A stretch of 64,000 nucleotides of DNA from assembly GCA_963731735.1 (NCBI GenBank), contig CAVSWO010000002.1, forward strand, positions 128,529 to 192,528. The letters run 5' to 3'. Under the pieces are notes generated by a model that saw only the letters and a program-made list of their open reading frames with translations, searched no databases and was not told the origin of the DNA. Positions 781-44,552 of this stretch are shown piece by piece. The position numbers and the translations under genes were made by a program. The stretch's first letter is position 1; each line of letters opens with the position of its first letter. The stretch comes from Candidatus Kerfeldbacteria bacterium (lineage in GTDB: Bacteria > Patescibacteriota > Patescibacteriia > SBBC01 > CAIJZX01).

Positions 781-2535
781 TTAGGCGCGGGTCGCGTCGA
801 GAACTTCTTCAACGCTGGTAAATCCACGCAAGGCTTTAATCATCCCGTCTTGTTTCATGGTGACCATCCCCTGGTTGGCGAAAGCGGCCGTAATTTTTTC
901 AATTAAGTCACCGCCGCCAACGATAATTTTCTTCATTTCTTCGTTGATTTCCAGGACTTCAGAAATTGCCACCCGGCCCTTATAACCGGTATTTTCGCAG
1001 CGGGCGCATCCTTTTCCCTGCCACATTTTTAGCGGCGGCGTCAGGTCTATTTCTTTAGGGAGCGTCTTTTTCGATAACGGTTCCAACTCAGCCAATACTT
1101 TTTCCTGAATTTCATCCGGCATGGGAGTTTGCTGCTTACAATGCTGGCAGACCCGTCGCACCAGCCGTTGCGCCATGACCACATTCAACGAGGAGGCGAT
1201 CAGAAATGGTTCAATTTGCATATCAATCAAGCGCGGCACGGCCCCAATTGAGTCGTTGGTGTGCAAGGTGGAGAGCACGACGTGCCCGGTTAGTGCGGCG
1301 TGGACGCCTAAGGCGGCCGTTTCATTGTCGCGGATTTCACCGACCATGATAATATCCGGGTCTTGTCGCAGAATGGACCGCAAGCCGGCCGCAAACGTTA
1401 ACCCGACCTCCGGATTGACCTGCGATTGGTTAATGCCGGTCATGTAATACTCGACCGGGTCTTCAAGGGTAATAATGTTCACGCCCTCTTCATTCAGAAT
1501 ATTAAGGAGCGCGTACAAGGTGGTCGATTTACCGGATCCGGTTGGACCGGTTATCAGGAACATGCCGTGTGAGCGGGTTATTGCTTCCAGCATGACTTCC
1601 TTGTTGCGGCCTTCAAAACCCAGACCCTCAACCTTGATCAGTTCGCTGTTCGTATCCAAAATACGCATCACAACTTTTTCGCTGTTGATCAGCGGCAAGG
1701 TTGAAACGCGATAGTCAATATTGCGGCCGTCAATCACCATCCGGAATCGACCGTCCTGCGGCACCCGCGTTTCGTCAATTTTCAGGTTGGACAAGACCTT
1801 AATCCGGGCAACTAACGATGAGTGGACGTGCTTCGGGAGGGTCAACGAGGTGTGCAAGATACCGTCGATTCGGTAACGAATCCGGGTTTCATCGGCTACC
1901 GGCTCGATGTGCACGTCGGAGGCTTTGCCTTCAACCGCGTGACGCATGACGACCGAGACAATTTTTGAGACCGGCGCGGTTTTGACAACCTCCTCCAGCC
2001 CTTTATCAGAAATATCAACCGCTCCGATTTCCTTATCGGCGTCTTTCTCGGCGCCTTTCAGCGCCTCTTCCACTTCAGCCGACAAACTTTCGTACTGTCG
2101 CAAGACGTATTTGAGCGAAGCGTCGGAAGTCAGGTAATATTTGATCTGAAAATTATTCTTGCGGGCAATATACTCAATCGCTTCCAGGGCTTGAAAATTC
2201 GTCGGATCGACCATCGCAATCGAGACTTGGTTGTCGGACCGATTGAAGGCCACCATTTTGTAATTGGCCGCTAATTCCTGCGGCATGATATTCAAAATTT
2301 CGGCCCGGACAATTTTGCCGAACAAATCGACCGACGGCATGTTGTAGAGCGATGCCTTGGCTTTGAGCAGGTCCTCATCTCGAACCGCGCCCGAGTGCTC
2401 GATCACATGATCAAGCGTTTCCCGTTGCTGTTGCGCTTGGGCTTGCAATTCGCCAAGCTTGGCCGGCGTGATGGCCTTGGCCTGGAGCAGGATATCAGCC
2501 AGCGAGGCGGTCGTGGATACTTGCGGACCGGGCAT
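781..2535 (-). CDS. pilB: Type IV pilus assembly ATPase, PilB/GspE family
   Basis: 584 aa; N-terminal T2SSE_N-like region, Walker A GPTGSGKST, Walker B/Asp box DPDIIMVGEIRD, His box, tetracysteine CQHC...CARC zinc motif. Confidence 0.85.
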   Translation of the reverse strand: MPGPQVSTTASLADILLQAKAITPAKLGELQAQAQQQRETLDHVIEHSGAVRDEDLLKAKASLYNMPSVDLFGKIVRAEILNIMPQELAANYKMVAFNRSDNQVSIAMVDPTNFQALEAIEYIARKNNFQIKYYLTSDASLKYVLRQYESLSAEVEEALKGAEKDADKEIGAVDISDKGLEEVVKTAPVSKIVSVVMRHAVEGKASDVHIEPVADETRIRYRIDGILHTSLTLPKHVHSSLVARIKVLSNLKIDETRVPQDGRFRMVIDGRNIDYRVSTLPLINSEKVVMRILDTNSELIKVEGLGFEGRNKEVMLEAITRSHGMFLITGPTGSGKSTTLYALLNILNEEGVNIITLEDPVEYYMTGINQSQVNPEVGLTFAAGLRSILRQDPDIIMVGEIRDNETAALGVHAALTGHVVLSTLHTNDSIGAVPRLIDMQIEPFLIASSLNVVMAQRLVRRVCQHCKQQTPMPDEIQEKVLAELEPLSKKTLPKEIDLTPPLKMWQGKGCARCENTGYKGRVAISEVLEINEEMKKIIVGGGDLIEKITAAFANQGMVTMKQDGMIKALRGFTSVEEVLDATRA

Positions 2536-2538
2536 AGG

Positions 2539-2814
2539 CTATTGAAATGGATTGGGATTGCCAGAATCTGCGTTGACGTTGACCGTCACGGTTTGATCGA
2601 ACGACTGGAGGTCCTGATAGCGCGCATCGTTTAAAATCGTTTCTCCGAAATTGGTAATAACGGTTCGATTACGATTTTGGTTGACCAGCATGTCGTTACT
2701 GGTCGGAGCTAGGAACTGCTGGACTAAAAACCATCCAATCCCACCCAACACCAATACGACCACGGCGATGATGATGGTGCGATTTGAACTGGTGCGACGT
2801 TTAACAAGGGCCAT
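2539..2814 (-). CDS. Small membrane protein in the pilus operon (single TM helix, Asn/Gln-rich C-terminus)
   Basis: 91 aa ORF with one hydrophobic helix (IIIAVVVLVLGGIGWFLV). Translationally coupled between pilO-like and pilB. Confidence 0.4.
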   Translation of the reverse strand: MALVKRRTSSNRTIIIAVVVLVLGGIGWFLVQQFLAPTSNDMLVNQNRNRTVITNFGETILNDARYQDLQSFDQTVTVNVNADSGNPNPFQ

Positions 2815-2816
2815 GG

Positions 2817-3479
2817 CTAGGAAGATGTTTTATCAGGAACGTAATACGTTCGAACTACGATGGTATAAGGTGAGGAGGTAGTTTCCGTGTCGCTGGTTTC
2901 GGCCGTGTGCGAGAAGCTGACCGATAATACGTCAAATAATCGCTGGCTGGATTCAACCAGCGTCATAAAGCGCTTGAAGGCTTCGTAACTCGTTCCGCCG
3001 GAAACGGTCAGATTAATATCTTCCGTTTTGACATCCAGCGCCGTGGCGGTACCGGCCGGCGCCGTATCCGGCGTCGTCGCGGTGGCCGATGATCCCGAGG
3101 TGCCAATCTGGCCGGATTCATTGACCGAGATAGAGGACAATTCCAAGTTGGCCGTTCGGGCAATATTTTCAAGCGTCAACAACAGGCCCGGGAAATCGGA
3201 TTCGGTCGGCAGGAAGGCGTCCACCTGGGCTAATTGATCCTGCGGTAAGGCGGCTTTAAATTTGGCCACGGATTTCTTGAGTGAGGCCAGATATTCCTGT
3301 TCACTCGACAATTCGGATTCGACGTTCGCTTTTTCCAGGATGCCGGATGTGCGCAGATTCGATATCTTCGTGTCGAGCACTAAGAAATAGCCGCCGACCA
3401 TGACCAGCACCACCAGCACCCAGACCGTCCAGCGGTAATAGTCAGTTAAGAGCGATTGGAGAAAACTTGGGAATTTCAT
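2817..3479 (-). CDS. PilO-like pilus assembly protein (N-terminal TM, coiled coil)
   Basis: 220 aa; TM near N-terminus, predicted coiled-coil region, position after the pilN-like gene; overlaps it by 4 nt. Confidence 0.45.
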   Translation of the reverse strand: MKFPSFLQSLLTDYYRWTVWVLVVLVMVGGYFLVLDTKISNLRTSGILEKANVESELSSEQEYLASLKKSVAKFKAALPQDQLAQVDAFLPTESDFPGLLLTLENIARTANLELSSISVNESGQIGTSGSSATATTPDTAPAGTATALDVKTEDINLTVSGGTSYEAFKRFMTLVESSQRLFDVLSVSFSHTAETSDTETTSSPYTIVVRTYYVPDKTSS

Positions 3480-9856: not shown

Positions 9857-10672
9857 CTAGGGATATAAACCAATACACCCGGTGGCGCTGCTGCCATTGG
9901 CGCAAAAACAACGGGGGGTCGGATCAACCGCGGAACAATCGTTTAGGCCACCCCCGTTCACGTCATCACCCACCCGAATTGGGGTGCCATCCAGTATTCC
10001 GGCATCCAGGGTTGAACCGATGCCATCATTGCCGCTGTACCACACCGGTAATTGGGTGCTGTCGTAAGCGGATTTCACGGTTAACTGGCCATTGACCTGT
10101 AAATCCCCGCCAATTTCAATCGCATCGTTTGAACTCAATGCGTAGCCGGAAGGGTTGATGTTTGAGATATAGAGCGCGGCCGCCGGATTATCAGCCACCA
10201 AACTGACGGTTGGGTTGGTGCTTGAACCGCCGGTCAGCTGGACTCCCCAACTTTTATCAACCGGAAGTAAACGCAGGCCCAGCAGTTCCCAGGTTCCACC
10301 GCCGCCATCAGCCGGCCAAGTGTTCCGACACGCCCCGCCTAAGCAGACACTGCCGGGTACATCCACATTCACCGCAGCGCCCGAACGGCTAAACTTGACC
10401 GAGAGGTTGGCGGCCAAAGACGAGGGGCGCAGATAAATATCCGACGATGATGAGGCGATGTCCTGCCCGGTGGCGCCCAGTTCAAAATAGCTGTCACCCG
10501 TGCCGCCGGGAACAATCGCCACCACCCCTTGATAGGCTGCCGCTCGGGTGGTCGCACCGGGTGACACCGGCGCGGCCATCGCCGAGGTTGCCAACAATCC
10601 GCCCGCCATCAGCAAGGCGATACCGGCGGTCAACCAGTTCATCCATCGAGAATTGTTGCGGACGGTTTGCAT
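9857..10672 (-). CDS. Secreted Cys-loop-motif protein, paralog A of a six-gene tandem family
   Basis: ORF 9857..10795; most likely start at Met42 (10672), 2 nt after paralog B stop. Sec-type signal MNWLTAGIALLMAGGLLATSAMA. Motif VCLGGACRNTWP. Confidence 0.6.
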   Translation of the reverse strand: MQTVRNNSRWMNWLTAGIALLMAGGLLATSAMAAPVSPGATTRAAAYQGVVAIVPGGTGDSYFELGATGQDIASSSSDIYLRPSSLAANLSVKFSRSGAAVNVDVPGSVCLGGACRNTWPADGGGGTWELLGLRLLPVDKSWGVQLTGGSSTNPTVSLVADNPAAALYISNINPSGYALSSNDAIEIGGDLQVNGQLTVKSAYDSTQLPVWYSGNDGIGSTLDAGILDGTPIRVGDDVNGGGLNDCSAVDPTPRCFCANGSSATGCIGLYP

Positions 10673-10674
10673 AG

Positions 10675-11544
10675 TTAAATATGATTCCACATTGGCGCGC
10701 ATTTCTTTCCGATATCGGTGGCTACACACAAGCAGGCCAACGTTTTGTCTCCACCCGGATTTGGTTGGCCAAACGGACCGAGAATGCTGGCGCATGATGC
10801 AGCGGGTTCCAGCGTGACATTCTCAAAGTCGCCAAATGGTGACACGTAGCGGTCGGCATCAAGTCCTGAACCTTCACCTTGGTGCGGCGCAATACCCGCC
10901 GCCGGATATCCCGGATGCCAAACCTCGCTTCCATTCACGTAAATTTTTCTTCCCACTACCGTCTCCCCATCCGAAAATACGTTGCCGTCGGCTTGCATGG
11001 CTTGGGATAATCCGCTAGTGTCCCGATTAATAACCTGTAATCCGTAATACCCCGAACCATGAACATCCAGAGCGGGTCCGTTCTGGACACGCTGGCTTGA
11101 GGTTCCAACGCCGAGCGCGTAGGTAGCCGTATTGGGTTCCAGGTAGCCACTGTTGACCTGCCAATAATTGCCGCCGCCGGCCGTCGGCCAGACATCCCGG
11201 CAATCCTGGCTGCCGCTCCCGTTTAAACAGAGTTTCCCGGTTATCAAGACGTCTTCGGCGCTCCCATTTTTGAAAAAACGGATGCCTCGAGATTCCGGAA
11301 GCTGGGGACGAAAATAGAGGTCGCCGGTTGAGCCAATGTCCCGCCCGTTGTTACCGATCTCCATGGCTTGGCTGCCGTCCAATATCGTCAGGACTCCGCC
11401 ATAGACGCCAAGTTTTGTAAACGGCGCGCTGTTCGGCCCGTTCGTAATTGGCCCGGCCTGGGCTGGCAACATAGTAACCAGCGCGATGACGGCGATCAGG
11501 CCGAGAGCTAACCAGGTGTGAGATGTGAATCGGAGACGCAACAT
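10675..11544 (-). CDS. Secreted Cys-loop-motif protein, paralog B
   Basis: 289 aa; signal MLRLRFTSHTWLALGLIAVIALVTMLPAQA; mature N-terminus GPITNGPNSAPFTKLGVYGGV parallels paralog C; motif LCLNGSGSQDCRDVWP. Confidence 0.65.
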   Translation of the reverse strand: MLRLRFTSHTWLALGLIAVIALVTMLPAQAGPITNGPNSAPFTKLGVYGGVLTILDGSQAMEIGNNGRDIGSTGDLYFRPQLPESRGIRFFKNGSAEDVLITGKLCLNGSGSQDCRDVWPTAGGGNYWQVNSGYLEPNTATYALGVGTSSQRVQNGPALDVHGSGYYGLQVINRDTSGLSQAMQADGNVFSDGETVVGRKIYVNGSEVWHPGYPAAGIAPHQGEGSGLDADRYVSPFGDFENVTLEPAASCASILGPFGQPNPGGDKTLACLCVATDIGKKCAPMWNHI

Positions 11545-23163: not shown

Positions 23164-23253
23164 TGGCGGAGGCGGTAGGATTCGAACCTACGAGGAGCTT
23201 GCACCCCTAACGGTTTTCAAGACCGTCGCTTTCGACCACTCAGCCACGCCTCC
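23164..23253 (-). tRNA. tRNA-Ser (anticodon TGA), type II with long variable arm, CCA encoded
   Basis: Minus-strand sequence GGAGGCGTGGCTGAGTGGTCGAAAGCGACGGTCTTGAAAACCGT...GTAGGTTCGAATCCTACCGCCTCCGCCA; 7-bp acceptor stem, anticodon arm ACGGT-CTTGAAA-ACCGT. Confidence 0.85.
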
Positions 23254-30338: not shown

Positions 30339-31817
<1,479 letters not shown>

Positions 31818-34439: not shown

Positions 34440-36007
34440 ACTCCGTTGCACATAACGACAACCCCGGATAATCTGAAAAATATGTGAAGCCATAGTCATG
34501 AAACTACCTTGAAGAGTCTGGATTACTTCATGGTGCCATCCGTGGACTGATAACAGCAATCTATGCTTATATCCATGGCAACGAAAACTGGCCCTGCTCT
34601 TTTTAGCTCTTCGCGTTTGGCATAGAGGACTGGGATGGACACAGGGACACGGGCCTGGTTTACATCATCATCATTAATCCATCTGTCCCTGACAAACAGG
34701 GTAAATCATTCATCCACTTAAAACATAAATCGGTCATTGAGGCATATATGTTAGTCAGACGAGTCATCGAGGCAGGACTAGCAAAGGTGCTCAAATGAAT
34801 ACGATGCTGTTGTTCAGCAGTGCTTGGACCTCCATGCTAGCCCCAGCTGTCGCACGAAAGCGCCCTCCCATTGCTGTACCTTGAGCACTTCTATTAGGGA
34901 AACACCTCTCCTTTCCCTGAGGGACCTGTTCACGGTAGTTTTATCTATTTGAGCTGAGGAGGGGTCTCTTATTGCTTCGTTAGCTTCCTGGTTGTGGTAT
35001 GAACTTCGTGCGCCGATGTGAGCTATTCTCCACCAAAATGATGGGTCACCCAAACAGCCAATTTGGACTCCACATGCGTTCCTTGTGGCTACTATTGTTC
35101 TCCCTGCTAAGCAATGCACATATCACCAGCAATGAATCAGAATTGATAGCCTCTATCCAAAAATAAAAAAGGCAATACTTCAAGCTGATAAAAGCTGTGT
35201 GCTGATCTTAGCCATGTTCCACATGCACAGGTCATCAACCATGACGGTGACTCAGCTGCTGCTATCAGTGATTAATGGCGGACAAAAGCGTTGTTCTTAT
35301 GTGAACGCCTTATAGTCGGCCAAGAGCGTCTGGCCTATTCCTAAACCGGACTCCTATAAACTCCCCAAGGCTGTGACTACTTTACTTTACAAAAGAAACC
35401 ACACACACGCCTCTGGGCTGCCTCACAATGACTGCCTGAGGCTCACTGGGCAGTCATTCTCGCCCCCAGTCACTCGACTAGACAGCTCGCTTCCTCCGTG
35501 ATCACTCACTGCTCCGCCAAAATTGCTGACTTTTGGAACCGCTGGCAAGAAGCCGGCACAGGGAAACTCTACCGTGGTGCATCGTATGTAGAGATATTCA
35601 CATATTACGGGCCTCAGGCTCCGAATGGTGGCCTGTATCGCCCGACGGCCGGACAACGGCGGTACGGGCGCAAATCGCCGCTTACTTCAGCGTCAGCATC
35701 AGCACCCATCCGAGCGGTCGCGACAGCATCAGCCCACAACATTCAATTGCCGCCCGGCTGATGGCCGGGTCTCCTCCGACGGCGCCAGCCAGCCCGAGAT
35801 CAGCCTGCCTAACCTCTGGCCACACTGTCACATCATTTGCCTTTTTACAACGGCAGGTTCAAACCAACATCCACCTATCGTCTATACCGATCGGAGACGA
35901 CGGGGTTCTCGACCAGATCGGCGAAGTTGCTATCAATCCGTCCTCCGCCTGACCCGCGCATGGAGCCAGCTGGCGGGGACTCGGAGACGCCTCTCCGGTG
36001 GTGAACA

Positions 36008-36547
36008 ATGGGGTCGAGCCGAGTGGGATGCACATGGTTGGATATGGGCAATGAACCAATTCACTGTGGCCAGCTTGTTCATGAGTACTGGCCAGCTGAT
36101 CAGGTCAAGCAGGATATCGCACACGAACTCTCTCCTTGTGCTAGCTGTTGGCTGGCGCTCGATGCGGAGCAAGTGGTTGGATTCTGCTGGGGATACCCAA
36201 TTACACTTGAAAACTTGGAGCGGAAGCTGGCGACTCCGATCATGCTCCGGTTTCTGTGGAAGTGTGGCTACCCGCCGGGTACCGAGGTGGCTTATCAGGA
36301 TGAGCTCGGTGTTCTCCTTCCCTACCGCTCCCACGGTATCGCGCGCCAATTGGTCACCATGCGTCAGCTCAGTTTTGACGCTCAGCGTCTTACCCTGAAC
36401 ATTGTCCGAACGCGGAAATCACCTCCATCAGTAACGTACCTCTGGTATACGCGCGATGGGTACCGCGAGATCGGATCGTATCCGGATGGACGCGTAGTCC
36501 TCGCCAGAGAAGTTGCTGGGTATCTCATCCCGCAGTCGGAATACTAA
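36008..36547 (+). CDS. GNAT family N-acetyltransferase
   Basis: 179 aa; acetyl-CoA binding motif A-like QDELGVLLPYRSHGIARQLV. Confidence 0.5.
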   Translation: MGSSRVGCTWLDMGNEPIHCGQLVHEYWPADQVKQDIAHELSPCASCWLALDAEQVVGFCWGYPITLENLERKLATPIMLRFLWKCGYPPGTEVAYQDELGVLLPYRSHGIARQLVTMRQLSFDAQRLTLNIVRTRKSPPSVTYLWYTRDGYREIGSYPDGRVVLAREVAGYLIPQSEY

Positions 36548-36626
36548 TCCGACACATCGTCAGCCAAGCCTCACAATATGTGGGGCTTTTTTTCTACTAC
36601 TTCATTTTGCGATGCGATAAATATTG

Positions 36627-37496
36627 CTAAACTCCTTTTTTCGTCTCTGATAAGCTCTCCCAAAAACCAATCAACTTTGGATCGTAATGGTGCTGACTGG
36701 ACATTGGGATGACGAAATCCTTGTCCCACTGCTTGAATTCACCATGGAGCGTTTGTGAGAAGAGTCCCTTATAACTCTTTACCTTCTGTTCAAGATTTGT
36801 ACTGAAGGAATATGCCTGAAAGTGCTTGAGGTATTCTGGATCATGCTGTTCTAAATATTCAATGGCTGCCTTCTCTCCACGCCAAGGGATGTTACGAAAA
36901 GAGAAATACGCTGTGACTAACTCGGTAATGCTGTACAGCAATCGAAGTTCAAGAGTCTGGTGGTAAAGGGTATTATTAGATTTGTAGTACCGGGTATTGG
37001 CAATATAGTTATAATTGACCTTCACCCACAAGTCCTGTTGTTCTTGCTTAGCAAATGTGAATTCTGGGGACTGATGTTCAAGTTTCACGCAAAGCTTCTT
37101 GAGTAAGGCGTCAGGATCGTAAACGATTTTTGCCAAAGTCAGCCACGTTACAAACATGCCATCAAAGTCATTGGCCGTGAAGGTGTTCTTGGTATTCAAT
37201 CGCTTAAGGAAGCTCGTATCAAAAAAGAAGATATCGGCGAAATGATCCTCAATCGTGGTATAGATGGACTTCAACCCAACCGTATTAGTATCAAGAATAA
37301 CTATGAGGTCAATATCGCTCGAGTCCGTTATCGAAGTAGCTGTCGATCCTGTTAGAAAAATTCCTCGTACTCGCGGGGAACGCTCGAGCTTATCAATGAC
37401 TTGAGAAAGCGAAAGGCTAGACACGCGGGCTTCTACTTCAGCAACTGTTTTACCTTCTCCACCACTTCCGCCGGAGAATTCATCGCCTTGACCCAA
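36627..37496 (-). CDS. Nucleotidyltransferase-domain protein (Pol-beta superfamily; KNTase/ANT-like N-terminal fold plus helical C-terminal domain)
   Basis: 289 aa; GIFLTGSTATSITDSSDIDLIVILD matches the GS...D.D nucleotidyltransferase signature. Last gene of the signalling operon. Confidence 0.5.
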   Translation of the reverse strand: MGQGDEFSGGSGGEGKTVAEVEARVSSLSLSQVIDKLERSPRVRGIFLTGSTATSITDSSDIDLIVILDTNTVGLKSIYTTIEDHFADIFFFDTSFLKRLNTKNTFTANDFDGMFVTWLTLAKIVYDPDALLKKLCVKLEHQSPEFTFAKQEQQDLWVKVNYNYIANTRYYKSNNTLYHQTLELRLLYSITELVTAYFSFRNIPWRGEKAAIEYLEQHDPEYLKHFQAYSFSTNLEQKVKSYKGLFSQTLHGEFKQWDKDFVIPMSSQHHYDPKLIGFWESLSETKKGV

Positions 37497-37840
37497 TAAT
37501 CGGTGGCACCAAGTTCTTTGGCGCGTTCCACGTTACCCTGCATTTTTTCATCAAGATTGGTGAGAATAACTACGGGGACATCTTTCGTGGCTGGATTCTT
37601 CTTTAGTTGTTCGAGCACTTCAAACCCCGATTCTTTATCAAGTACGTCCGTAAGCCCGCGATGCTTGGGCATAATGAGATCCAGAAGAATAAGATCTGGA
37701 TGAACCCGCTGAGCGGTTTCCAGACCTTTTTCTTGGGTAGCGGCTGGGAGAAACTCGAATGTTCCTTCAAGTGAAAACTTAAGGGTATAGAGATGGATTA
37801 GCTCTTGTTCGTCATCAATAAATAGTACTTTTTTCTTCAT
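37433..37840 (-). CDS. Single-domain response regulator receiver
   Basis: 135 aa; VLFIDDE, LILLDLIMP, KAMNSPAEVV receiver motifs. Confidence 0.75.
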   Translation of the reverse strand: MKKKVLFIDDEQELIHLYTLKFSLEGTFEFLPAATQEKGLETAQRVHPDLILLDLIMPKHRGLTDVLDKESGFEVLEQLKKNPATKDVPVVILTNLDEKMQGNVERAKELGATDYWVKAMNSPAEVVEKVKQLLK

Positions 37841-37844
37841 AAAG

Positions 37845-38228
37845 TTATTCTTTGGCTAATCGTTCAAGAACCTTATTCACCACTTGCTGTGGTAGGAGTT
37901 CTGCCTTGATAAGGTACTGTTCCGCCCCAAGTCCAAGGCCTTTAGCGGCATTATCTTTTTCACCTACATTGGTGAGCAAAAAAACTGGGATACTAGCCAG
38001 TGACGGATCTTCTTTTAAGCGTTTGAGAACCTCAAAGCCATCGAGATCATCCATACGGATATCGAGCAAGATCAGATTTGGCTTACTCTTCTTGGCTAAG
38101 GACAAACCCTCATAACCACCATAGGCAATCAAAAGGTTCAAGCCAGCCACCTTGAATTTAATGCCATACATCTCACACAAAACGCGCTCGTCTTCGATTA
38201 GGAGTATCTTGGCTTTTTTAGGATCCAT
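37845..38228 (-). CDS. Single-domain response regulator receiver
   Basis: 127 aa; ILLIEDE, LILLDIRMDDLDGF, conserved T/K region LLTNVGEK...YLIKA. Confidence 0.75.
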   Translation of the reverse strand: MDPKKAKILLIEDERVLCEMYGIKFKVAGLNLLIAYGGYEGLSLAKKSKPNLILLDIRMDDLDGFEVLKRLKEDPSLASIPVFLLTNVGEKDNAAKGLGLGAEQYLIKAELLPQQVVNKVLERLAKE

Positions 38229-38230
38229 AA

Positions 38231-39239
38231 TTATTTAGTAGAGTGATTTTGTTGATGAATGGGAAGTGTGATCGTGACCGTGGAACCCTTTCCATCTCCG
38301 TCACTAATGATGTCAATCGCACCGTGGTGCTCGTCAATCACGTTCTTGGCAATAAAGAGTCCGAGACCAGAACCGTTGGTGTGCTGGTAAGTGGATTTTT
38401 CGCCTCGGGAAGACTTCTGGAACAACTTCGAACGGTCAGACTTTGGAATGCCAATACCGGTGTCCTTAACGGTGAGGACGACTGCCTCACCCTTAACCCC
38501 CAGACTGATTGTTGTGCCACCGGTATTTGTATATTTCTCGGCGTTATCGATAATGTTCATTAAGACCTCGTGGAGCATCTTTGGTTCGGCCTCTATCTTT
38601 GGTAGCGGTGGCTTCGGGTGATTAAACTTTAAGTAGAGCTCCTTATGGTCATAGTTCGGTTTGAGGTCACCACAAACACTATCGATCATTTCCTCAAGTT
38701 GTACTTGTTGGAAGTCAAAATGAAGACTCCCGCCCTCAAGCTCCATCGCTTTCAGCAAATCGTTGACGATACTAGAAGCCTATTTGCTGAGTCCAACATG
38801 TGGTGCTGTTCGGTTTTCTTTTCGTCCTTCGATAAGCTATCAAAGTCTCCGTCTGCTTGCATAGCCAATAGTCCACGAACAGCTGTCAATGGCGTGCGGA
38901 GCTGGTGGGAAGCAATAGTAAGGAACTCCGACTTATTTTAACGAGTTCTTGCAAATGTTCATTTTTATCGGAAATGTCCCTTGTTTGCTCATCAACCTTT
39001 GAGCGGAGATTCTTGTTGAAGTCTTGAACTTGCTGATAGAGCAAGCCGTTTTGAATAGCAATTGATGCTTGGTCAGCGATGGAATCGAGGAGTTGTAAAT
39101 CACCGGACGTGTAGGCTTCCTTGGTTACCTTTGATCCTAACACAACAATACCAATAAGATGCTTACCAAACGTTAACGGCAAACAGAGCGCCGCTTCAAT
39201 CCTTTTCATATTTACAACGAGCTTCCCCGACCTCGCCAT
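38231..39239 (-). pseudogene. 3' part of the sensor histidine kinase (end of GAF domain, HisKA, HATPase_c), broken by frameshifts
   Basis: 38886..39239 carries the GAF C-terminal part; HisKA (SHQLRTPL-like) reads in another frame around 38760-38940; 38231..38758 encodes HATPase_c (GTGIGIPKSD..., GSGLGLFIAKNV). All are colinear with the upstream 787-aa ORF. Confidence 0.55.
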
Positions 39240-41559
39240 TTCCTTGTCCCGCGACTTGCATCCCTTCCAGTTCCTGCAACAACACGGAACGTCGATTTGT
39301 TGTAAGATAATTCGTTAAAAAGTTGTTACGAACAAGTGAAATACCGTTTTCCTCATTGAAACCAATGTTTTTGACGATATGGTAATTCGATGTCGTTTGG
39401 TCATACAAGAGGACACCTGCTCGGTCGAGCTTCATAGTGCTCTTAATCGTCTCAACGACTGAGTTAACAATCTGTTGAAGATCAATGGTATGCGTCAGTT
39501 CGCGCCCTAAGTCAGCTAACGTCACTTGCACGTTATACAGACTGGTAAAGAAGAAACGATTGGCTAGTCGTTCGATCCACAATTTGAGTGGATCGAAGAC
39601 GATTAAGCCAAACGTGATAACGGCTAAACTCCATGGGATAGGAGTACTGCCAGAAAAATTGTTTGATCCCCAGTCAACAAGTAATCCAGAAACACCAAGA
39701 ATAATTGCGAATGTTAATAGATAAACTGTCGTTCGTTTAAAAATAATACGAATATCTAGGAGTCGGTATCGCACAATAGTGTATGCGACGGTCATGATAA
39801 AGACGAGCGGAGCGACGTTAGTAAACGTTATTAACGCCGAGGAGTGAAAAACGAGTGGGGCAACGACATTGAAGAGAATAATACACGTGAAGCTCAGGGC
39901 AAAACTTCCGAGAATATATTGAAGCTGTGTTCGCTCGATTCCGAACCTGGTTCGGATCTGATGGACAAACTGCTTAATAATCCCAAACAAGTAAAGAAAA
40001 AAACCGATGAAGAAATAGCCCACCGCCCAGCCCGGATGCGCTACGATATTTCCATTATTTACCTCGACGCTTTTGAACATCCATGGACTGAGTGCCAGTG
40101 CCATACTGGAGACCACGACAAATGCTGATAATACAACAGTCTGTCGCCGAGTAACTAATGATCGATGCGGAAAGTTGCTAAGAAATAAATACCAAGACGG
40201 GGTCAGAACCGAAGCAAAAAACATAGTCCAACGTATCCAAATGACTATGCGGGATGGATCGTGATAGAACGATGTCAGGTAGTTTGAACCGATGGCGCCA
40301 GCAAAACCGATGGAAAAGATGAACAGCAACATATGCAGCGCCGATCGTCGGTTATTCGACAACACAACGCCCGCCAGAATAATGGTGCTCGCGACCGAGA
40401 GGATAGTAACAATGAGACCAAACATATTAGACAGCAAAAAGTTTTTCGAATGGACCGAAACACATGAAGGCAATTGGTCACCAAGGGCTATGCGCTTGAT
40501 GGCGTACGTGACTAGAGAACCACCGAGGAATGAAGCTAGGGCAAGTTGTGGATGGCCAGCAAGATGTGTCCCCACTCGACGAATGGAATCCAGCATGCGC
40601 GGGGAAATATCTTTCACTCCAATCATCTGCGTCGCCAGTCGTGCTATTTCCTGATACTCTAAGGTCGTAGGTACATTTTCCAATTCCTTCTCCGGCACAC
40701 GGCCACCAAACATTGGTGTATGTTGGTCGAGATCATGTCGCTCAATATCAAGTATCGCCCCATCTGCCAAATCCGTCGCCATTAAAACAGCGATCCGGTG
40801 TTGACGAGCAAAAAGACGAAGTTTGATTTTCATTCGGATGTTGTCAAAAGCATCAACCACAATATCTAGTTTCTGGTCACCGAGGAGAAAAGCCTCTAGA
40901 TTCTCTTCGGTAATCGCCTGAGGGAAAAGTAAGGGTGCCGCAAATGGATCAAGTTCCGTTATCTTACGAGCCAGAACTGTGGTTTTTTGTTCCCCCACGT
41001 CTGCCAGCGTCGCGTGCATGCGATTTAAATTGCTCGCCTCAATAATATCCGGATCGGCCATCCGAAGTGACTGCCCGATGCCACTAATCGTAAGTGTCAA
41101 TGCCTGAGCTTGACCGACGCTGAGACCGATAATACCGATGCGTATTTGCTGAAGCTTACGCTGTTCCTCGATCGTTACAAGATTACGGTTTCTCGCGGTA
41201 CGCAGTTGAAAATAGTCATCCGCAGCCGGAACATGGATGAGCTCTCGATTCCATGGATAATAGGCCCATACCCCACACCGTGCTGAATTTTCTTGGTTCC
41301 CACGGTGTGACTGAAGCCAGGATTCATAGGCGATTTTCAAACCTTGGGGATCCGATTTTAACGGTGGATGGCTGATGACGTACAGCTCACGAAGCATCTC
41401 ATCATATCGATCAAGAACAACCACGTCCCGCGCCTCAGCTAAAAAGGCATCCAGTCGATCCACCTCGTCCGGACGACTCATATCATACAAAACTGGGCGA
41501 GCTACATCAGTATCATCTGTGTGACGACGTTGCCACTGCTCAAGGCGTTCTTCAAGCAT
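39196..41559 (-). CDS. Fusion protein: N-terminal E1/ThiF-like adenylyltransferase domain, multi-TM (about 8 helices) sensor region, and start of a GAF domain
   Basis: 787-aa continuous ORF. ThiF/E1 signature ADPDIIEASNLNRM and Rossmann-like IRIGIIGLSVGQ in the first 330 aa, then a long hydrophobic block, then GAF-like sequence continuing into the frameshifted kinase. Start overlaps the upstream gene by 8 nt. Confidence 0.6.
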   Translation of the reverse strand: MLEERLEQWQRRHTDDTDVARPVLYDMSRPDEVDRLDAFLAEARDVVVLDRYDEMLRELYVISHPPLKSDPQGLKIAYESWLQSHRGNQENSARCGVWAYYPWNRELIHVPAADDYFQLRTARNRNLVTIEEQRKLQQIRIGIIGLSVGQAQALTLTISGIGQSLRMADPDIIEASNLNRMHATLADVGEQKTTVLARKITELDPFAAPLLFPQAITEENLEAFLLGDQKLDIVVDAFDNIRMKIKLRLFARQHRIAVLMATDLADGAILDIERHDLDQHTPMFGGRVPEKELENVPTTLEYQEIARLATQMIGVKDISPRMLDSIRRVGTHLAGHPQLALASFLGGSLVTYAIKRIALGDQLPSCVSVHSKNFLLSNMFGLIVTILSVASTIILAGVVLSNNRRSALHMLLFIFSIGFAGAIGSNYLTSFYHDPSRIVIWIRWTMFFASVLTPSWYLFLSNFPHRSLVTRRQTVVLSAFVVVSSMALALSPWMFKSVEVNNGNIVAHPGWAVGYFFIGFFLYLFGIIKQFVHQIRTRFGIERTQLQYILGSFALSFTCIILFNVVAPLVFHSSALITFTNVAPLVFIMTVAYTIVRYRLLDIRIIFKRTTVYLLTFAIILGVSGLLVDWGSNNFSGSTPIPWSLAVITFGLIVFDPLKLWIERLANRFFFTSLYNVQVTLADLGRELTHTIDLQQIVNSVVETIKSTMKLDRAGVLLYDQTTSNYHIVKNIGFNEENGISLVRNNFLTNYLTTNRRSVLLQELEGMQVAGQGNGEVGEARCKYEKD

Positions 41560-43075
41560 GGGGTTTTACGATGATAAACTTTTGCTTATCTGAAGAAAAA
41601 TATTTACGGTCTTGGAATGGACGATTATGGACTTGGACTAGGCCAGGCCTCGTAACCGACTCGGTCAGTTTTCGGAATTCACTGTTCACCGTTTTGAGGT
41701 GGTCGGTAATATACTTCGCTAGATACTGTTCATCAACATCACCATTCTGGTGTTTCGGACCGAGCTCAACGAAAAATTCTAGATATTGATTGCTTTTCTC
41801 ATCCTCGCTTGTCTGCATAGCGAATCGTCCGGTGATTTTCCCCTGGAATTCCGGTGCGAGTAAAATGGATTTAATACTTTCCGGATATACATTGACGGCA
41901 TAGATGGTCGCTGTCAGGTTTGAACGCCCAAAGAGATAGGCAAACGGTAAACTCCATGGAGCCGAACCTATAGCCTTGTTTATCACTTCTTGACTGATAC
42001 CAGCTTTGGCCAAGTGCCCTATGATTTCGGTAATGGTGAGGAGGCCGCCCCGATCTTTGGTATTATATCGAACTAATGGTATACCACCAAGATTCGTCAG
42101 CACCAGTTCGTGGTCAACCGCTTCGATGAACTTTGTCAGAGGATTAAACTGGACGATAGACGGTAACGTATCATGACCGAAGAATTGGGTATGCAACTTC
42201 GGCTGTTTATAACAAGCACGACGCAGGTAAACACTCATTGGCGTCTCAACCCCGACGATGCCGCCCTCTGATGATCCGAGTACAGAGGTAATATCTTTGA
42301 ACTCGTGGTTTAATTGTGCATGTTTGAAAACATAATCTCGCCATGACTCGGTATGGACTTCACCACCAACGAGTACCTTCAGTTTCATTTTTGCAATGTC
42401 GATTCCTTCGGTGATAGCTAGGTCAATGATATCTTTTACGAAGGCTGGATAGCCTATGATGAAAACCTGTTCATAATACGGGGCTACATTCCGTAGGATT
42501 TTTATCGTCTCCCCAAGATCGATTCCCGGCGACATGACTGTCAGTGGGTAACCCTTGGCGGCAATAGTCTTTCCTGACGAAAGCATCATCTCGCCGGCAG
42601 TCCAGACACCCATGCCAAGGTTGTCGAGTAAGAGGGTTGAAACGTGATCAATGGCGAAATTTTTGATATACAACAGCTCTAATATTTTTGCTATGCCCAG
42701 ATCCTGATCAAGAAGTCGGGGCCAGTAGAAAGGTTTTCCTGACGATCCCGAACTTGAAGAGATAATGTTGGTTTGTGACAAATTGCCGTCCAAACACAAC
42801 TGATCCAGTGGGTACTGCATCAGGTATGACTCTTTATCGGTTAGTGGAACCTCTTGAAAAGCTTCGTAGGTAGTAATTTTTGTCGAATCGACACTGTGTT
42901 TTTTGAGAAAATCTTTATAGGCCGGTACGCGTTCCGCGACGATCTGAAAACTCTTTAGCGCAAACTCCTTACCCTTTTCATCCCACATAGCGGGAGGTGC
43001 TTTTTGGAGAGCTACTTCGTCCTTGGTGGGATCGGAAGTATAGTATGTCTGAAATAACTCAAGTGGTGTTGGCAT
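41552..43075 (-). CDS. Adenylate-forming enzyme of the PaaK / coenzyme F390 synthetase / GH3-like family
   Basis: 507 aa; AMP-binding P-loop SSSGSSGKPFYWP and family-typical size and architecture. Translationally coupled to the E1-like/sensor gene. Confidence 0.6.
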   Translation of the reverse strand: MPTPLELFQTYYTSDPTKDEVALQKAPPAMWDEKGKEFALKSFQIVAERVPAYKDFLKKHSVDSTKITTYEAFQEVPLTDKESYLMQYPLDQLCLDGNLSQTNIISSSSGSSGKPFYWPRLLDQDLGIAKILELLYIKNFAIDHVSTLLLDNLGMGVWTAGEMMLSSGKTIAAKGYPLTVMSPGIDLGETIKILRNVAPYYEQVFIIGYPAFVKDIIDLAITEGIDIAKMKLKVLVGGEVHTESWRDYVFKHAQLNHEFKDITSVLGSSEGGIVGVETPMSVYLRRACYKQPKLHTQFFGHDTLPSIVQFNPLTKFIEAVDHELVLTNLGGIPLVRYNTKDRGGLLTITEIIGHLAKAGISQEVINKAIGSAPWSLPFAYLFGRSNLTATIYAVNVYPESIKSILLAPEFQGKITGRFAMQTSEDEKSNQYLEFFVELGPKHQNGDVDEQYLAKYITDHLKTVNSEFRKLTESVTRPGLVQVHNRPFQDRKYFSSDKQKFIIVKPHA

Positions 43076-43603
43076 AAAAAGGGAAAAGATTACCCCGATA
43101 TTAAAGCCCTACGGCAAGCAAATGATAACACAAAATGAGGCTTTCGCGTAATATTACGTCATCAAACCTTGCAAGGGATCTTAAGGGTTTCGCGGTCTTT
43201 TAGAAACCAAACTTATTTGAAGTTACCTACAGTTTACCAACTAGACGCCGTCCCCCATCGCGGTACTGTCTGGACAAGTCACTGAGCAAGAAAAACGAAG
43301 TTGCTGGAAGGCGCAAAATACGCTAGAATAACGCCAGTTTGAGGCCTCGGTAGCAGTTGTTTCCTCAAACGTCCTTTCTCCAACTTCTTTGCCTAACCCA
43401 TACCCTTGTATGGCACGGCATCTAACTCCCATCCCTGGTATTGAGCTCTCCGCTCAGTGACTCAGGGATGGGTCATATCCTGAAAGGGGTATGGGTGGCC
43501 GCAAGGCTGCTAGCTGACGGAGAGCTCTGTGTTATGCAGAGATTCTCGCAAGCTACAAAATCCCATCCCACGACATGCTTTTATCTACCAATATCCTAAG
43601 CAT

Positions 43604-44122
43604 ATGAAAACCGTCTATGGTTCGCTTTTGCATAGAAAAAATATAGTGGCCATCACCTTTATTGGTGTGTCGGCTATGCTTCTCTCGGGCTGTTCCGGAT
43701 CGTCAACAACGAAGACAACTAATACCACAAACACTGGGGTGTCCGCCCCGCAGGTCAGCGCAGAAGATAGTATCAAGGAAGTCCTGAGAAGTTACAGTTC
43801 ACTTTGCGGACAACGGAAGTTCGGTGATGCATACCAATACGTCGCGTCAGCTAGTAACGTTACCCAGAAGAATTTCGTTGACGACCTAACTGGCCGTGGC
43901 CAGCTTGTAAGCGGATTTAAGGACATTTCCTATAACTACGTTCAAATACATGGCGACACCGCCGATGTTTCATACACGGTGACGTGGAGCCTGCTTACCA
44001 ATTCTGTTAGTGGGGGCGCATACAACTACGAGCGGCAGTACCAAATGGTCAAAGAAACTGGGAATTGGAAAATCCTGTGGAAGAGCGACGACGCAGTAAA
44101 TACGAATTCAACCAATCAGTAA
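43604..44122 (+). CDS. Putative lipoprotein
   Basis: ORF 43529..44122; start taken at internal Met MKTVYGSLL...; lipobox LLSGC; Ser/Thr-rich linker. Confidence 0.5.
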   Translation: MKTVYGSLLHRKNIVAITFIGVSAMLLSGCSGSSTTKTTNTTNTGVSAPQVSAEDSIKEVLRSYSSLCGQRKFGDAYQYVASASNVTQKNFVDDLTGRGQLVSGFKDISYNYVQIHGDTADVSYTVTWSLLTNSVSGGAYNYERQYQMVKETGNWKILWKSDDAVNTNSTNQ

Positions 44123-44123
44123 C

Positions 44124-44399
44124 ATGTTCAAACGCGTCCCTGTTCAGAAACTCACTGGTCAAGAAACTTTCCACCAGACGGGAGAGAAGAAGTTCAACGT
44201 GTTGGAGTTCTGGCAGTATGGTTTCTCGAACCTGAACTCAAATGTTTTGCGCGGAGCATTGGCCGAGTTCATTGTTGAGAACGCCCTCAAAGACGTAAAG
44301 GACATCAACATCAGAAACCCGTGGGGCGACTCCGATAAAAGATTGAGTTGGCGGAGAGGGAGAGATTCGAACTCTCGATACGGGTTTAACCCCGTATAA
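44124..44399 (+). other. Short ORF that runs into the tRNA-Ser(GCT) gene; likely a gene remnant at the island/tRNA junction
   Basis: 91-aa ORF whose last about 17 codons overlap the tRNA (44349-44442). The first 70 aa look protein-like (FNVLEFWQYGFSNLNSNVLRGALAEFIVENALKD) but no domain is recognised. Confidence 0.3.
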
Positions 44400-44442
44400 C
44401 AGGTTAGCAACCTGCCGCTTTCAACCGCTCAGCCACCTCTCC
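44349..44442 (-). tRNA. tRNA-Ser (anticodon GCT), type II, CCA encoded
   Basis: Minus strand GGAGAGGTGGCTGAGCGGTTGAAAGCGGCAGGTTGCTAACCTG...GAGTTCGAATCTCTCCCTCTCCGCCA; anticodon arm CAGGT-TGCTAAC-ACCTG. Confidence 0.85.
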
Positions 44443-44475
44443 CCGTTTCTGTTGACGATATGTAAAACTGACTTT

Positions 44476-44552
44476 TGGTGCGCCCGACAGGATTCGAACC
44501 TATGACCTTCAGCTCCGCAAGCTGACGCTCTATCCAACTGAGCTACGGGCGC
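44476..44552 (-). tRNA. tRNA-Arg; anticodon reads GCG as sequenced
   Basis: Minus strand GCGCCCGTAGCTCAGTTGGATAGAGCGTCAGCTTGCGGAGCTGAAGGTCATAGGTTCGAATCCTGTCGGGCGCACCA. Arg-type D-arm; anticodon arm TCAGC-TTGCGGA-GCTGA. Confidence 0.75.

Follow-up and report, generated by a model that had tools for sequence, protein, structure and literature searches.

A PaaK-like ligase and a putative oxazolone-synthetase-like ThiF protein encoded beside seven-transmembrane histidine kinases in Patescibacteria, with an apparent ThiF-kinase fusion that results from a single-base gap

Bacterial oxazolone synthetases were discovered between 2020 and 2025, and their physiological role has been described as "a major unresolved question" (PMC12856293). 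In Mycobacterium tuberculosis, Rv1355c (TrzS) is an ATP-dependent cyclase that converts the N-acyl-tryptophan made by TrzA into an N-acyl tryptazolone. The D217A mutation of TrzS abolishes this cyclization, and a saturated oxazolone intermediate accumulates with TrzS under limiting O2 (PMC12856293). Acid or methanol hydrolyses oxazolones (PMC12856293). The same oxazolone chemistry is known for TyzB/TyzC (PMC10404671) and OxzB (bioRxiv 10.1101/2020.06.11.147165), and OxzAB and TyzACB follow a three-step logic, i.e. N-acylation of an amino acid, ATP-dependent cyclization by a ThiF protein and desaturation by a nitroreductase-type enzyme (PMC10404671, bioRxiv 10.1101/2020.06.11.147165). A signalling role is suspected in these papers, which report no receptor (PMC12856293). 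A text search of three oxazolone papers found no mention of a kinase or of a two-component system, and a literature search joining oxazolone, histidine kinase and nitroreductase returned no paper. Here, we analysed a 64-kb stretch of DNA from a Candidatus Kerfeldbacteria bacterium (Patescibacteriota; contig CAVSWO010000002.1, positions 128,529 to 192,528), hereafter the window. Between 36627 and 43075, its minus strand carries an operon encoding a ligase of the PaaK clade, a ThiF-like protein, a seven-transmembrane (7TM) histidine kinase, two receiver proteins and a putative nucleotidyltransferase.

We surveyed 16 non-redundant loci of this kind from bacteria of the candidate phyla radiation (CPR), using hidden Markov models (HMMs) built from the operon proteins, clustering of the neighbouring genes and annotated contigs. 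The PaaK-like gene is present in all 16 CPR-type loci and the ThiF gene adjoins it in 15 of them. A gene encoding a HisKA_7TM kinase adjoins the ligase/ThiF pair in 14/16 loci, and receiver proteins are encoded nearby in 12/16. Two loci have no kinase beside the pair: in one, the contig stops within the ThiF gene, and in the other the kinase lies 9 kb off, beside the oxidase gene. The gene order differs between loci (ligase-ThiF-kinase or ThiF-ligase-kinase). As a control, about 70 PaaK-like loci from outside the CPR were examined: a kinase was found within 1.6 kb on either side of the ligase in 1 out of 70, and a ThiF gene in none. Ligase, ThiF and 7TM kinase/receiver genes therefore remain neighbours through changes of gene order, and this gene context gives good support for a functional connection of a phosphorelay with a pathway that modifies a small molecule. 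An earlier note on this DNA, made from the sequence alone, had proposed two adenylating enzymes coupled to a phosphorelay through modification of a ligand or peptide, with a domain like that of ubiquitin-activating enzymes (E1) fused to the sensor. The conserved pairing with a 7TM kinase holds (14/16 loci, the kinase being a separate gene); the fused E1-sensor does not, and the E1/peptide mechanism is not supported.

A separate nitroreductase-type oxidase was detected in 6 of the 16 CPR-type loci, where its gene adjoins the ligase/ThiF pair or lies within about 9 kb (L022). In one of them (L006), the oxidase aligns with positions 376-712 of the Rv1355c profile (E 1.6e-55), which is the C-terminal half of this model. 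The ThiF protein and the oxidase of that locus thus correspond to a split TrzS. The HMM screen found no oxidase in the clade to which the window belongs (L001, L003, L004 and L005) or anywhere in the 64-kb window.

Beyond CPR bacteria, the ThiF and oxidase domains occur in one protein. From a metagenome scan with an alignment of these fused proteins as query, we retrieved 80 fused-type loci. Among the 55 that have at least 3.5 kb of sequence downstream, a co-directional kinase gene starts within 1.5 kb downstream in 51; at 70% non-redundancy, a kinase lies within 1.6 kb in 38 out of 40. The median pairwise identity of the fused enzymes is 44%. Culturable members of the fused-gene clade include Algoriphagus and other Cytophagales. 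On the long contig of the closest fused relative (L092, 6453-13635), a divergent receiver (REC) gene is followed by the genes for a ThiF-oxidase (776 aa), for a protein of 229 aa, for a 7TMR-DISM kinase and for two further proteins, REC-HisKA-HATPase and REC. Typical sizes in L092-L172 are about 154 aa (first REC), 770 aa (ThiF-oxidase), 230-270 aa (the protein called c2 hereafter), 715 aa (7TMR-DISM kinase), 361 aa (REC-HisKA-HATPase) and 133 aa (last REC). Two unrelated types of 7TM sensor, HisKA_7TM and 7TMR-DISM, are therefore encoded beside these enzymes.

The c2 protein (230-270 aa, intervening or preceding) was identified in 68 of 78 fused-type loci. It displays only a sub-threshold GNAT-like similarity. 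Because its gene occupies the place of oxzA in the published oxzAB operons, we take it by inference as an N-acyltransferase, i.e. as a putative acyltransferase by position. Neither the CPR-type loci nor the window, including its GNAT gene at 36008-36547, yielded a c2 homologue (E up to 10), and the PaaK-like ligase was found in none of about 80 fused-type loci. This complementary distribution of the ligase (CPR-type) and c2 (fused-type) is our main argument that the ligase may supply the N-acylation step in CPR bacteria.

The ligase is encoded by the first gene of the operon (41552-43075, minus strand; 507 aa), identified from its open reading frame (ORF), NCBIfam models and structure comparison. 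It has no Pfam match. NCBIfam PaaK models match it (E 2.3e-14) with scores of 52.8 and 45.1 bits, where 700 and 646 bits would be required. Scores so far below these cut-offs indicate a separate subfamily of about 505 aa rather than the phenylacetate-CoA ligase equivalog. The AlphaFold2 (AF2) model (pLDDT 88.1) presents the two-domain PaaK fold, and its top Foldseek matches, with a probability of 1.00, are PaaK1/PaaK2, BT_0428, AjiA1, the 'PaaK family AMP-ligase' structures 6six/6siy and ClxA. The target-normalised TM score reaches 0.77 against PaaK1 and BT_0428, for 12-19% identity to the structural matches. A profile search of the PDB also returned PaaK (E 2e-17). Conserved elements are the SSGSSGxP motif and a C-terminal Lys, with S109, S111 and G113 invariant. 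The earlier note had called this protein a PaaK/GH3-like adenylating enzyme: its placement in the PaaK clade of the ANL superfamily is borne out by NCBIfam and Foldseek, and the GH3 assignment was rejected, as no GH3 protein appears in the top 50 Foldseek matches.

PaaK relatives such as AjiA1 and ClxA form ester or amide bonds without coenzyme A (CoA), and by analogy an N-acylating role for the window ligase is plausible. Its subfamily is widespread, with at least 556 matches among GTDB species genomes, including Actinobacteria, Cyanobacteria and Methylococcaceae. Members of about 500 aa (35-38% identity; loci L016 and L018-L089) are common in Actinobacteria (Lentzea, Amycolatopsis, Umezawaea, Pseudonocardia), Cyanobacteria (Nostoc, Scytonema and others) and Methylococcaceae. 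In all these groups they are without a ThiF or 7TM-kinase neighbour, the match lying mostly at about 10001-11400 of the loci. A quick look at the actinobacterial and cyanobacterial loci revealed no recurrent partner. A class I/II aminotransferase gene lies within 1.5 kb of the ligase gene in 6 out of 90 loci. Loci with such a gene beside or near the ligase include L014, L022, L090, L173, L045 and L080, and gene clustering and annotated contigs add two cases to the six, L173 and L017 (about 4 kb upstream of the ligase). In L007 (5385-6455), the cluster includes an ELFV amino-acid dehydrogenase and an alpha/beta hydrolase. These aminotransferase and dehydrogenase neighbours hint at an amino-acid or 2-oxo-acid substrate and are too rare to rely on; for the same reason, the aminotransferase was rejected as a conserved partner of the ligase (6/90).

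The second gene encodes the ThiF-like protein. Its true extent is 40427-41559 (minus strand), as established from Pfam, NCBIfam and an identical protein, and it encodes 377 aa in L001, the Logan assembly of ERR11594398 from the same strain. The ligase and ThiF genes share an 8-nt overlap, which is genuine, as the earlier note had it. The protein carries a Pfam ThiF domain (PF00899, E 2.8e-21) with the ADPDIIEASNLNRM signature, again in agreement with that first description. Its best NCBIfam model is NF005901, 'Rv1355c family' (E 1.7e-85, 287.7 bits), which aligns residues 13-365 with positions 4-328 of its 722-position profile, followed by ThiF (E 2.7e-20). As the protein has no oxidase half, its score stays under the whole-protein cut-off of NF005901 (476 bits). 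All E1, MoeB, MccB-like and Cap2 matches fall short of the NF005901 match by over 60 orders of magnitude. This match also takes in an extra N-terminal domain of about 120 residues that is common only to the Rv1355c family.

Eleven residues are invariant among 47 stand-alone members of the family (R123, N124, G145, S147, G149, D169, N177, N179, R180, K192 and D239). They correspond to the ThiF/MoeB adenylation site, and the invariant set is identical in the fused (A3) and stand-alone (A2) families. From the shared motif rather than a direct alignment, D239 (VVDAFDN) is probably the equivalent of TrzS D217. The AF2 model of the protein (pLDDT 91.9) has AclA (9egb) as its best solved Foldseek match, followed by ThiF, PaaA and TcdA, and also resembles MccB. 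By sequence profile, the best PDB match is TcdA, a cyclodehydratase (E 1e-18). On these sequence comparisons, the ThiF protein is probably homologous over its full length to the cyclase (N-terminal) half of Rv1355c/TrzS, hence a cyclase of small-molecule type and not a ubiquitin-type E1. A defence system of the Cap2-type E1-E2 kind known from CBASS, or any other, was considered and rejected: PADLOC matches are weak or partial (best E 5e-12) and cover the E1 part only, and none of the other operon proteins matches any PADLOC defence system.

The sensor kinase gene spans 38231-40425 (minus strand) in its true extent. It is intact in L001, where the 731-aa product carries HisKA_7TM, GAF, HisKA and HATPase_c domains (Pfam), and the intact orthologues P0241-P0245 measure 730-749 aa. 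Two receiver-only response regulators follow on the same strand, at 37845-38228 (127 aa; Response_reg E 8.7e-19) and 37433-37840 (135 aa; E 1.2e-14). The position of the 127-aa gene is kept in L001 and L003. Both receivers, already recognized in the earlier note, are intact in the window, the kinase being split by three indels; in L001, all the two-component domains are intact. Domain searches found no DNA-binding output domain in either regulator. In addition, a membrane protein with only a HisKA_7TM domain is encoded near the cluster in L005 (5705-6391, 228 aa) and L017 (about 2066-3019, 315 aa).

The last gene (36627-37496, minus strand) has a longest ORF of 289 aa, which the start used in L001 shortens to 265 aa (about 36627-37424). 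Its Pfam similarity to Polbeta (24.7 bits, cut-off 26.9) and NTP_transf_2 (19.5 bits, cut-off 21) stays below the cut-offs, and it has no NCBIfam or PDB sequence match. A Pol-beta-type nucleotidyltransferase, as first suggested, is thus putative. The effector role proposed for it is not a conserved one: among the loci fetched for the HMM screen, homologues were found only in L001/L002 and L003, i.e. in the two closest relatives, so that this gene is accessory and not a conserved effector.

As read directly in the window, the ThiF and kinase genes form a single ORF of 787 aa (39196-41559), with ThiF at residues 123-291 followed by HisKA_7TM (Pfam). It was this ORF that the earlier note had interpreted as an E1-like module built into a membrane sensor kinase. 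We compared the window with L001 and with L002, a raw, indel-ridden contig of long-read style from the same organism. Over most of 14 kb, two noisy patches excepted, the window and L001 show 0 mismatches per 500 bp. Between 37745 and 40464, they differ by 8 mismatches and 4 single-base indels. One T of L001 is absent from the window between 40453 and 40452, 26 nt ahead of the ThiF stop codon TAA (40429-40427), and a C>T mismatch lies 12 nt from it, at 40464. Direct reading of both sequences gives the junction ...GGTC(T)CATTCGAAAAACTTTTTGCTGTC TAA T ATG TTT GGT..., where a single base separates the ThiF stop from the kinase ATG (40425-40423) in L001. The gap leaves the last 9 ThiF codons out of frame and moves the ThiF reading into the kinase frame, hence the apparent fusion.

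Three other indels, at 39228 (+1), 38934 (-1) and 38776 (-1), break the kinase, so that the frameshifts suspected in the earlier note are present. The fused ORF ends ahead of HisKA/HATPase, and two fragments (38886-39239 and 38231-38758) contain the end of the GAF domain and the HATPase_c domain (Pfam), respectively. The HisKA_7TM, GAF and HATPase pieces first described are therefore present.

The relatives tell the same story. In L001, the successive products are a 507-aa protein, the 377-aa ThiF, the kinase and proteins of 127, 135 and 265 aa, and L002 retains the 377-aa ThiF despite its indels. A search with residues 1-376 found P0001, a stand-alone protein of 377 aa that is 100% identical to the window ThiF and lies on these two assemblies. 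The 120 best ThiF relatives are essentially all of stand-alone size (286-434 aa) and come mostly from Patescibacteria metagenome-assembled genomes. With the 787-aa ORF as query against 5.8 billion clusters, no match covered more than 52%. The roughly 240 relatives listed comprise kinases, ThiF proteins standing alone and fusions of ThiF with a nitroreductase, and none combines ThiF with a kinase. Of the listed matches to the 787-aa ORF, those with HisKA/HATPase (730-749 aa) lack PF00899, and the remaining ones carry PF00899 with or without a nitroreductase domain. Finally, ThiF and kinase genes are separate in 16 out of 16 CPR-type loci. The fusion is an artefact of a 1-nt indel or, at most, a lesion peculiar to this strain in a gene that was broken anyway, and the window locus is a six-gene operon of CPR/Patescibacteria type that carries four damaging single-base indels in this assembly. 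We are highly confident that no functional ThiF-kinase fusion exists. The E1-histidine kinase architecture submitted for this DNA is accordingly treated as non-existent, and the case calls for caution about indels in patchily polished assemblies.

We propose, with a probability of roughly 0.6, that the operon links a pathway for an oxazolone-like small molecule with a two-component system. The PaaK-like ligase would adenylate a carboxylic acid and join it to an amino acid or supply the activated acyl group, standing in for the acyl-CoA N-acyltransferase that known pathways use (OxzA/TyzA/TrzA). The ThiF protein would then adenylate that N-acyl amino acid's carboxylate and cyclize the compound to a 5(4H)-oxazolone, in the manner of TrzS, TyzB and OxzB. 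Where present, a nitroreductase-type flavin oxidase would desaturate the ring; in the window, which has no oxidase, the product may be a saturated oxazolone or the N-acyl amino acid itself. The 7TM-GAF kinase would sense this metabolite, or a cue controlling its production, and phosphorylate the two receiver-only proteins. That the kinase senses the product of the pathway is a tentative suggestion. Likewise tentative is the view that oxazolones derived from N-acyl amino acids, or close relatives, are dedicated signals whose receptors are the adjacent 7TM histidine kinases, in a system widespread from Bacteroidota-type bacteria, with their ThiF-oxidase fusion, c2, 7TMR-DISM kinase, hybrid kinase and receivers, to the CPR.

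Several points weigh against this proposal. The 64-kb window lacks both a flavin oxidase and an N-acyltransferase, i.e. two of the three components of the known pathways. The ligase family stands alone in Actinobacteria and Cyanobacteria and therefore need not act with ThiF, and the N-acylating role suggested for it derives entirely from gene distribution and the analogy with CoA-independent PaaK proteins. The receivers have no output domain. Moreover, the adjacency of the kinase would fit sensing of the product, control of the enzymes or a response to something else alike. The indels, for their part, concentrate in the kinase/receiver stretch instead of being evenly spread; genuine mutations carried by a subpopulation, and not errors of the consensus, could account for them.

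Three other explanations were weighed. The enzymes may act as proposed and the kinase may answer a stimulus from outside, for instance stress at the envelope or on host contact, and control a structural or protective lipid of N-acyl-amino-acid/oxazolone type. Antibiotics induce oxazolone production in Proteobacteria, the tyz locus of M. tuberculosis is tied to oxidative stress, and bacteria exposed to oxazolones showed no phenotype (bioRxiv 10.1101/2020.06.11.147165); gene adjacency suits a regulator of the enzymes equally with a receptor for their product. However, receiver-only regulators offer no apparent route to simple transcriptional control of the operon, and the recruitment of two unrelated 7TM sensor types to the same enzymes suits a membrane-soluble ligand, so that we judge this explanation unlikely. 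A peptide could instead be the substrate, if the ThiF protein adenylated a peptide C-terminus in the manner of E1, MccB or PaaA, the PaaK-like enzyme added a second modification and the kinase sensed the modified peptide. The resemblance of the fold to the peptide-acting MccB and PaaA, the N-terminal extension of about 120 residues and the weak E1-E2 matches in PADLOC would agree with it. However, the Rv1355c-family match accounts for this extension and lies far beyond the E1-type models. Among the 47 family members, there is no invariant or nearly invariant Cys, no Zn-type CxxC motif and no rhodanese domain. No small ORF (25-130 aa) with a Gly-Gly (GG) end was found in the window and six related loci, and no conserved small ORF was prominent among the gene families recurring in at least 3 of 15 loci. 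Relatives also hold a nitroreductase-type oxidase, just as small-molecule oxazolone pathways do. The peptide explanation is thus very unlikely. Of what the earlier note had put forward here, the ThiF fold stands, and adenylation/thiolation of a peptide C-terminus by an E1-like enzyme is not supported; the checks that it suggested, for a catalytic Cys and for a nearby ubiquitin-like or GG-ending peptide gene, found neither.

The remaining explanation takes the indels as real, the kinase being a decaying pseudogene and the ThiF C-terminus being fused by mutation to a dead 7TM remnant. It would account for the bunching of the 4 indels and 8 mismatches in 37745-40464 between kilobases that match L001 exactly, and for a second, heavily degraded block at 34.5-36.05 kb that eliminates three more genes. 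However, the mismatches adjoin the indels, as is typical of consensus errors, and the indel-riddled L002 still has its 377-aa ThiF. In the second block, about 75 indels in 1.5 kb are implausible between otherwise identical strains. Even if true, this explanation would yield a pseudogene and not a functional E1-kinase, and we hold it to be highly improbable. Separate ThiF and kinase genes, as in L001, therefore remain our reading of the operon.

The second block itself (34528-36034) differs from the otherwise identical L001 by about 260 mismatches and 75 indels, and a smaller patch lies at about 30600-31000. Three genes that are intact in L001 are wrecked there, encoding the N-terminus of a GNAT protein, a Trp-repressor-like protein of 104 aa and an AstE/AspA-like protein of 269 aa. 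The pattern suggests consensus error in patches, or strain variants collapsed into one sequence, and ORF-based readings of the window need comparison with L001.

The genes between 36627 and 43075 are tightly packed and co-directional on the minus strand, as first described from the ORF listing. Scans for promoters and terminators found nothing exceeding the shuffled expectation, with the exception of one hairpin (36566-36588) between the operon end and the convergent GNAT gene (36008-36547). Divergent from the operon, a full-length LOOT RNA motif (Rfam RF03000) was identified at 43390-43511 on the plus strand (76.5 bits, gathering score 46.4), directly upstream of a gene encoding a 197-aa NTF2/MecA_N-like protein (43529-44122). 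A 91-aa ORF (44124-44399) runs into a tRNA-Ser gene, and its C-terminal part is probably non-coding. Genes for tRNA-Ser(GCT), tRNA-Arg(GCG) and tRNA-Ser(TGA) are located at 44349-44552 and 23164-23253, all on the minus strand.

The placement of these enzymes beside 7TM kinases, in two enzyme formats and with two sensor types, leads to a testable hypothesis on their role, as the source of a signal or of a signal-controlled metabolite, and names the adjacent kinases as candidate receptors. If it is true, this would be a synthase-receptor system so far undescribed, and would give reduced, host-attached CPR bacteria a small-molecule communication channel. In the CPR version, an ATP-dependent PaaK-like ligase would have replaced the acyl-CoA acyltransferase and the oxidase would often have been lost. 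This points to a way of making N-acyl amino acids without CoA in the CPR and to possible signalling in organisms that depend on host contact.

The closest described system is TrzAS (Rv1356c-Rv1355c) of M. tuberculosis and M. smegmatis (Kleetz et al. 2025, PMC12856293). The window ThiF protein matches the whole cyclase half of TrzS and has the invariant adenylation residues in common with it; the score that the Rv1355c model gives it is far above those of other ThiF-family models. Some CPR relatives keep the oxidase half as a separate neighbour. The M. tuberculosis locus also adjoins signalling genes, for cyclic di-GMP turnover (PMC12856293). Unlike TrzS, the window protein stands alone, with no flavin oxidase in the window. 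In addition, a PaaK-clade ATP-dependent ligase takes the place of the TrzA-type acyl-CoA N-acyltransferase, and genes for a 7TM histidine kinase and for receiver-only regulators are linked with the pair, in a CPR host. OxzAB of Pseudoalteromonas rubra (de Rond et al.) and TyzACB of M. tuberculosis (Grigg et al. 2023, PMC10404671) follow the three-step logic that we propose for the window. They differ from it in forming a two-gene operon and a three-gene cluster, respectively, both with an acyl-CoA-dependent N-acyltransferase.

With TcdA/CsdL (the tRNA t6A cyclodehydratase) and with ThiF, MoeB and E1, the window protein shares the Rossmann-type ThiF fold and the residues of the ATP site. Unlike them, it has no ThiS/MoaD/ubiquitin-like partner, catalytic Cys, rhodanese domain or Zn site, and it possesses the N-terminal domain restricted to the Rv1355c family. 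The ligase has the fold and nucleotide motif of the PaaK family, including the CoA-independent AjiA1, 6six/6siy and ClxA, from which its low identity, its score of 52.8 against 700 bits and the lack of a Pfam model set it apart as a distinct subfamily. In the LuxM-LuxN and CqsA-CqsS/LqsA-LqsS systems, the gene for an autoinducer synthase adjoins that of a multi-pass membrane sensor kinase feeding a phosphorelay. This synthase-kinase arrangement may be the closest model for how the cassette works. The enzymes and sensor domains of those systems are unrelated to those of the window, and the likeness is one of gene arrangement. At the level of gene context, the conserved coupling between an oxazolone-synthetase-like pair of enzymes and a 7TM kinase is genuine.

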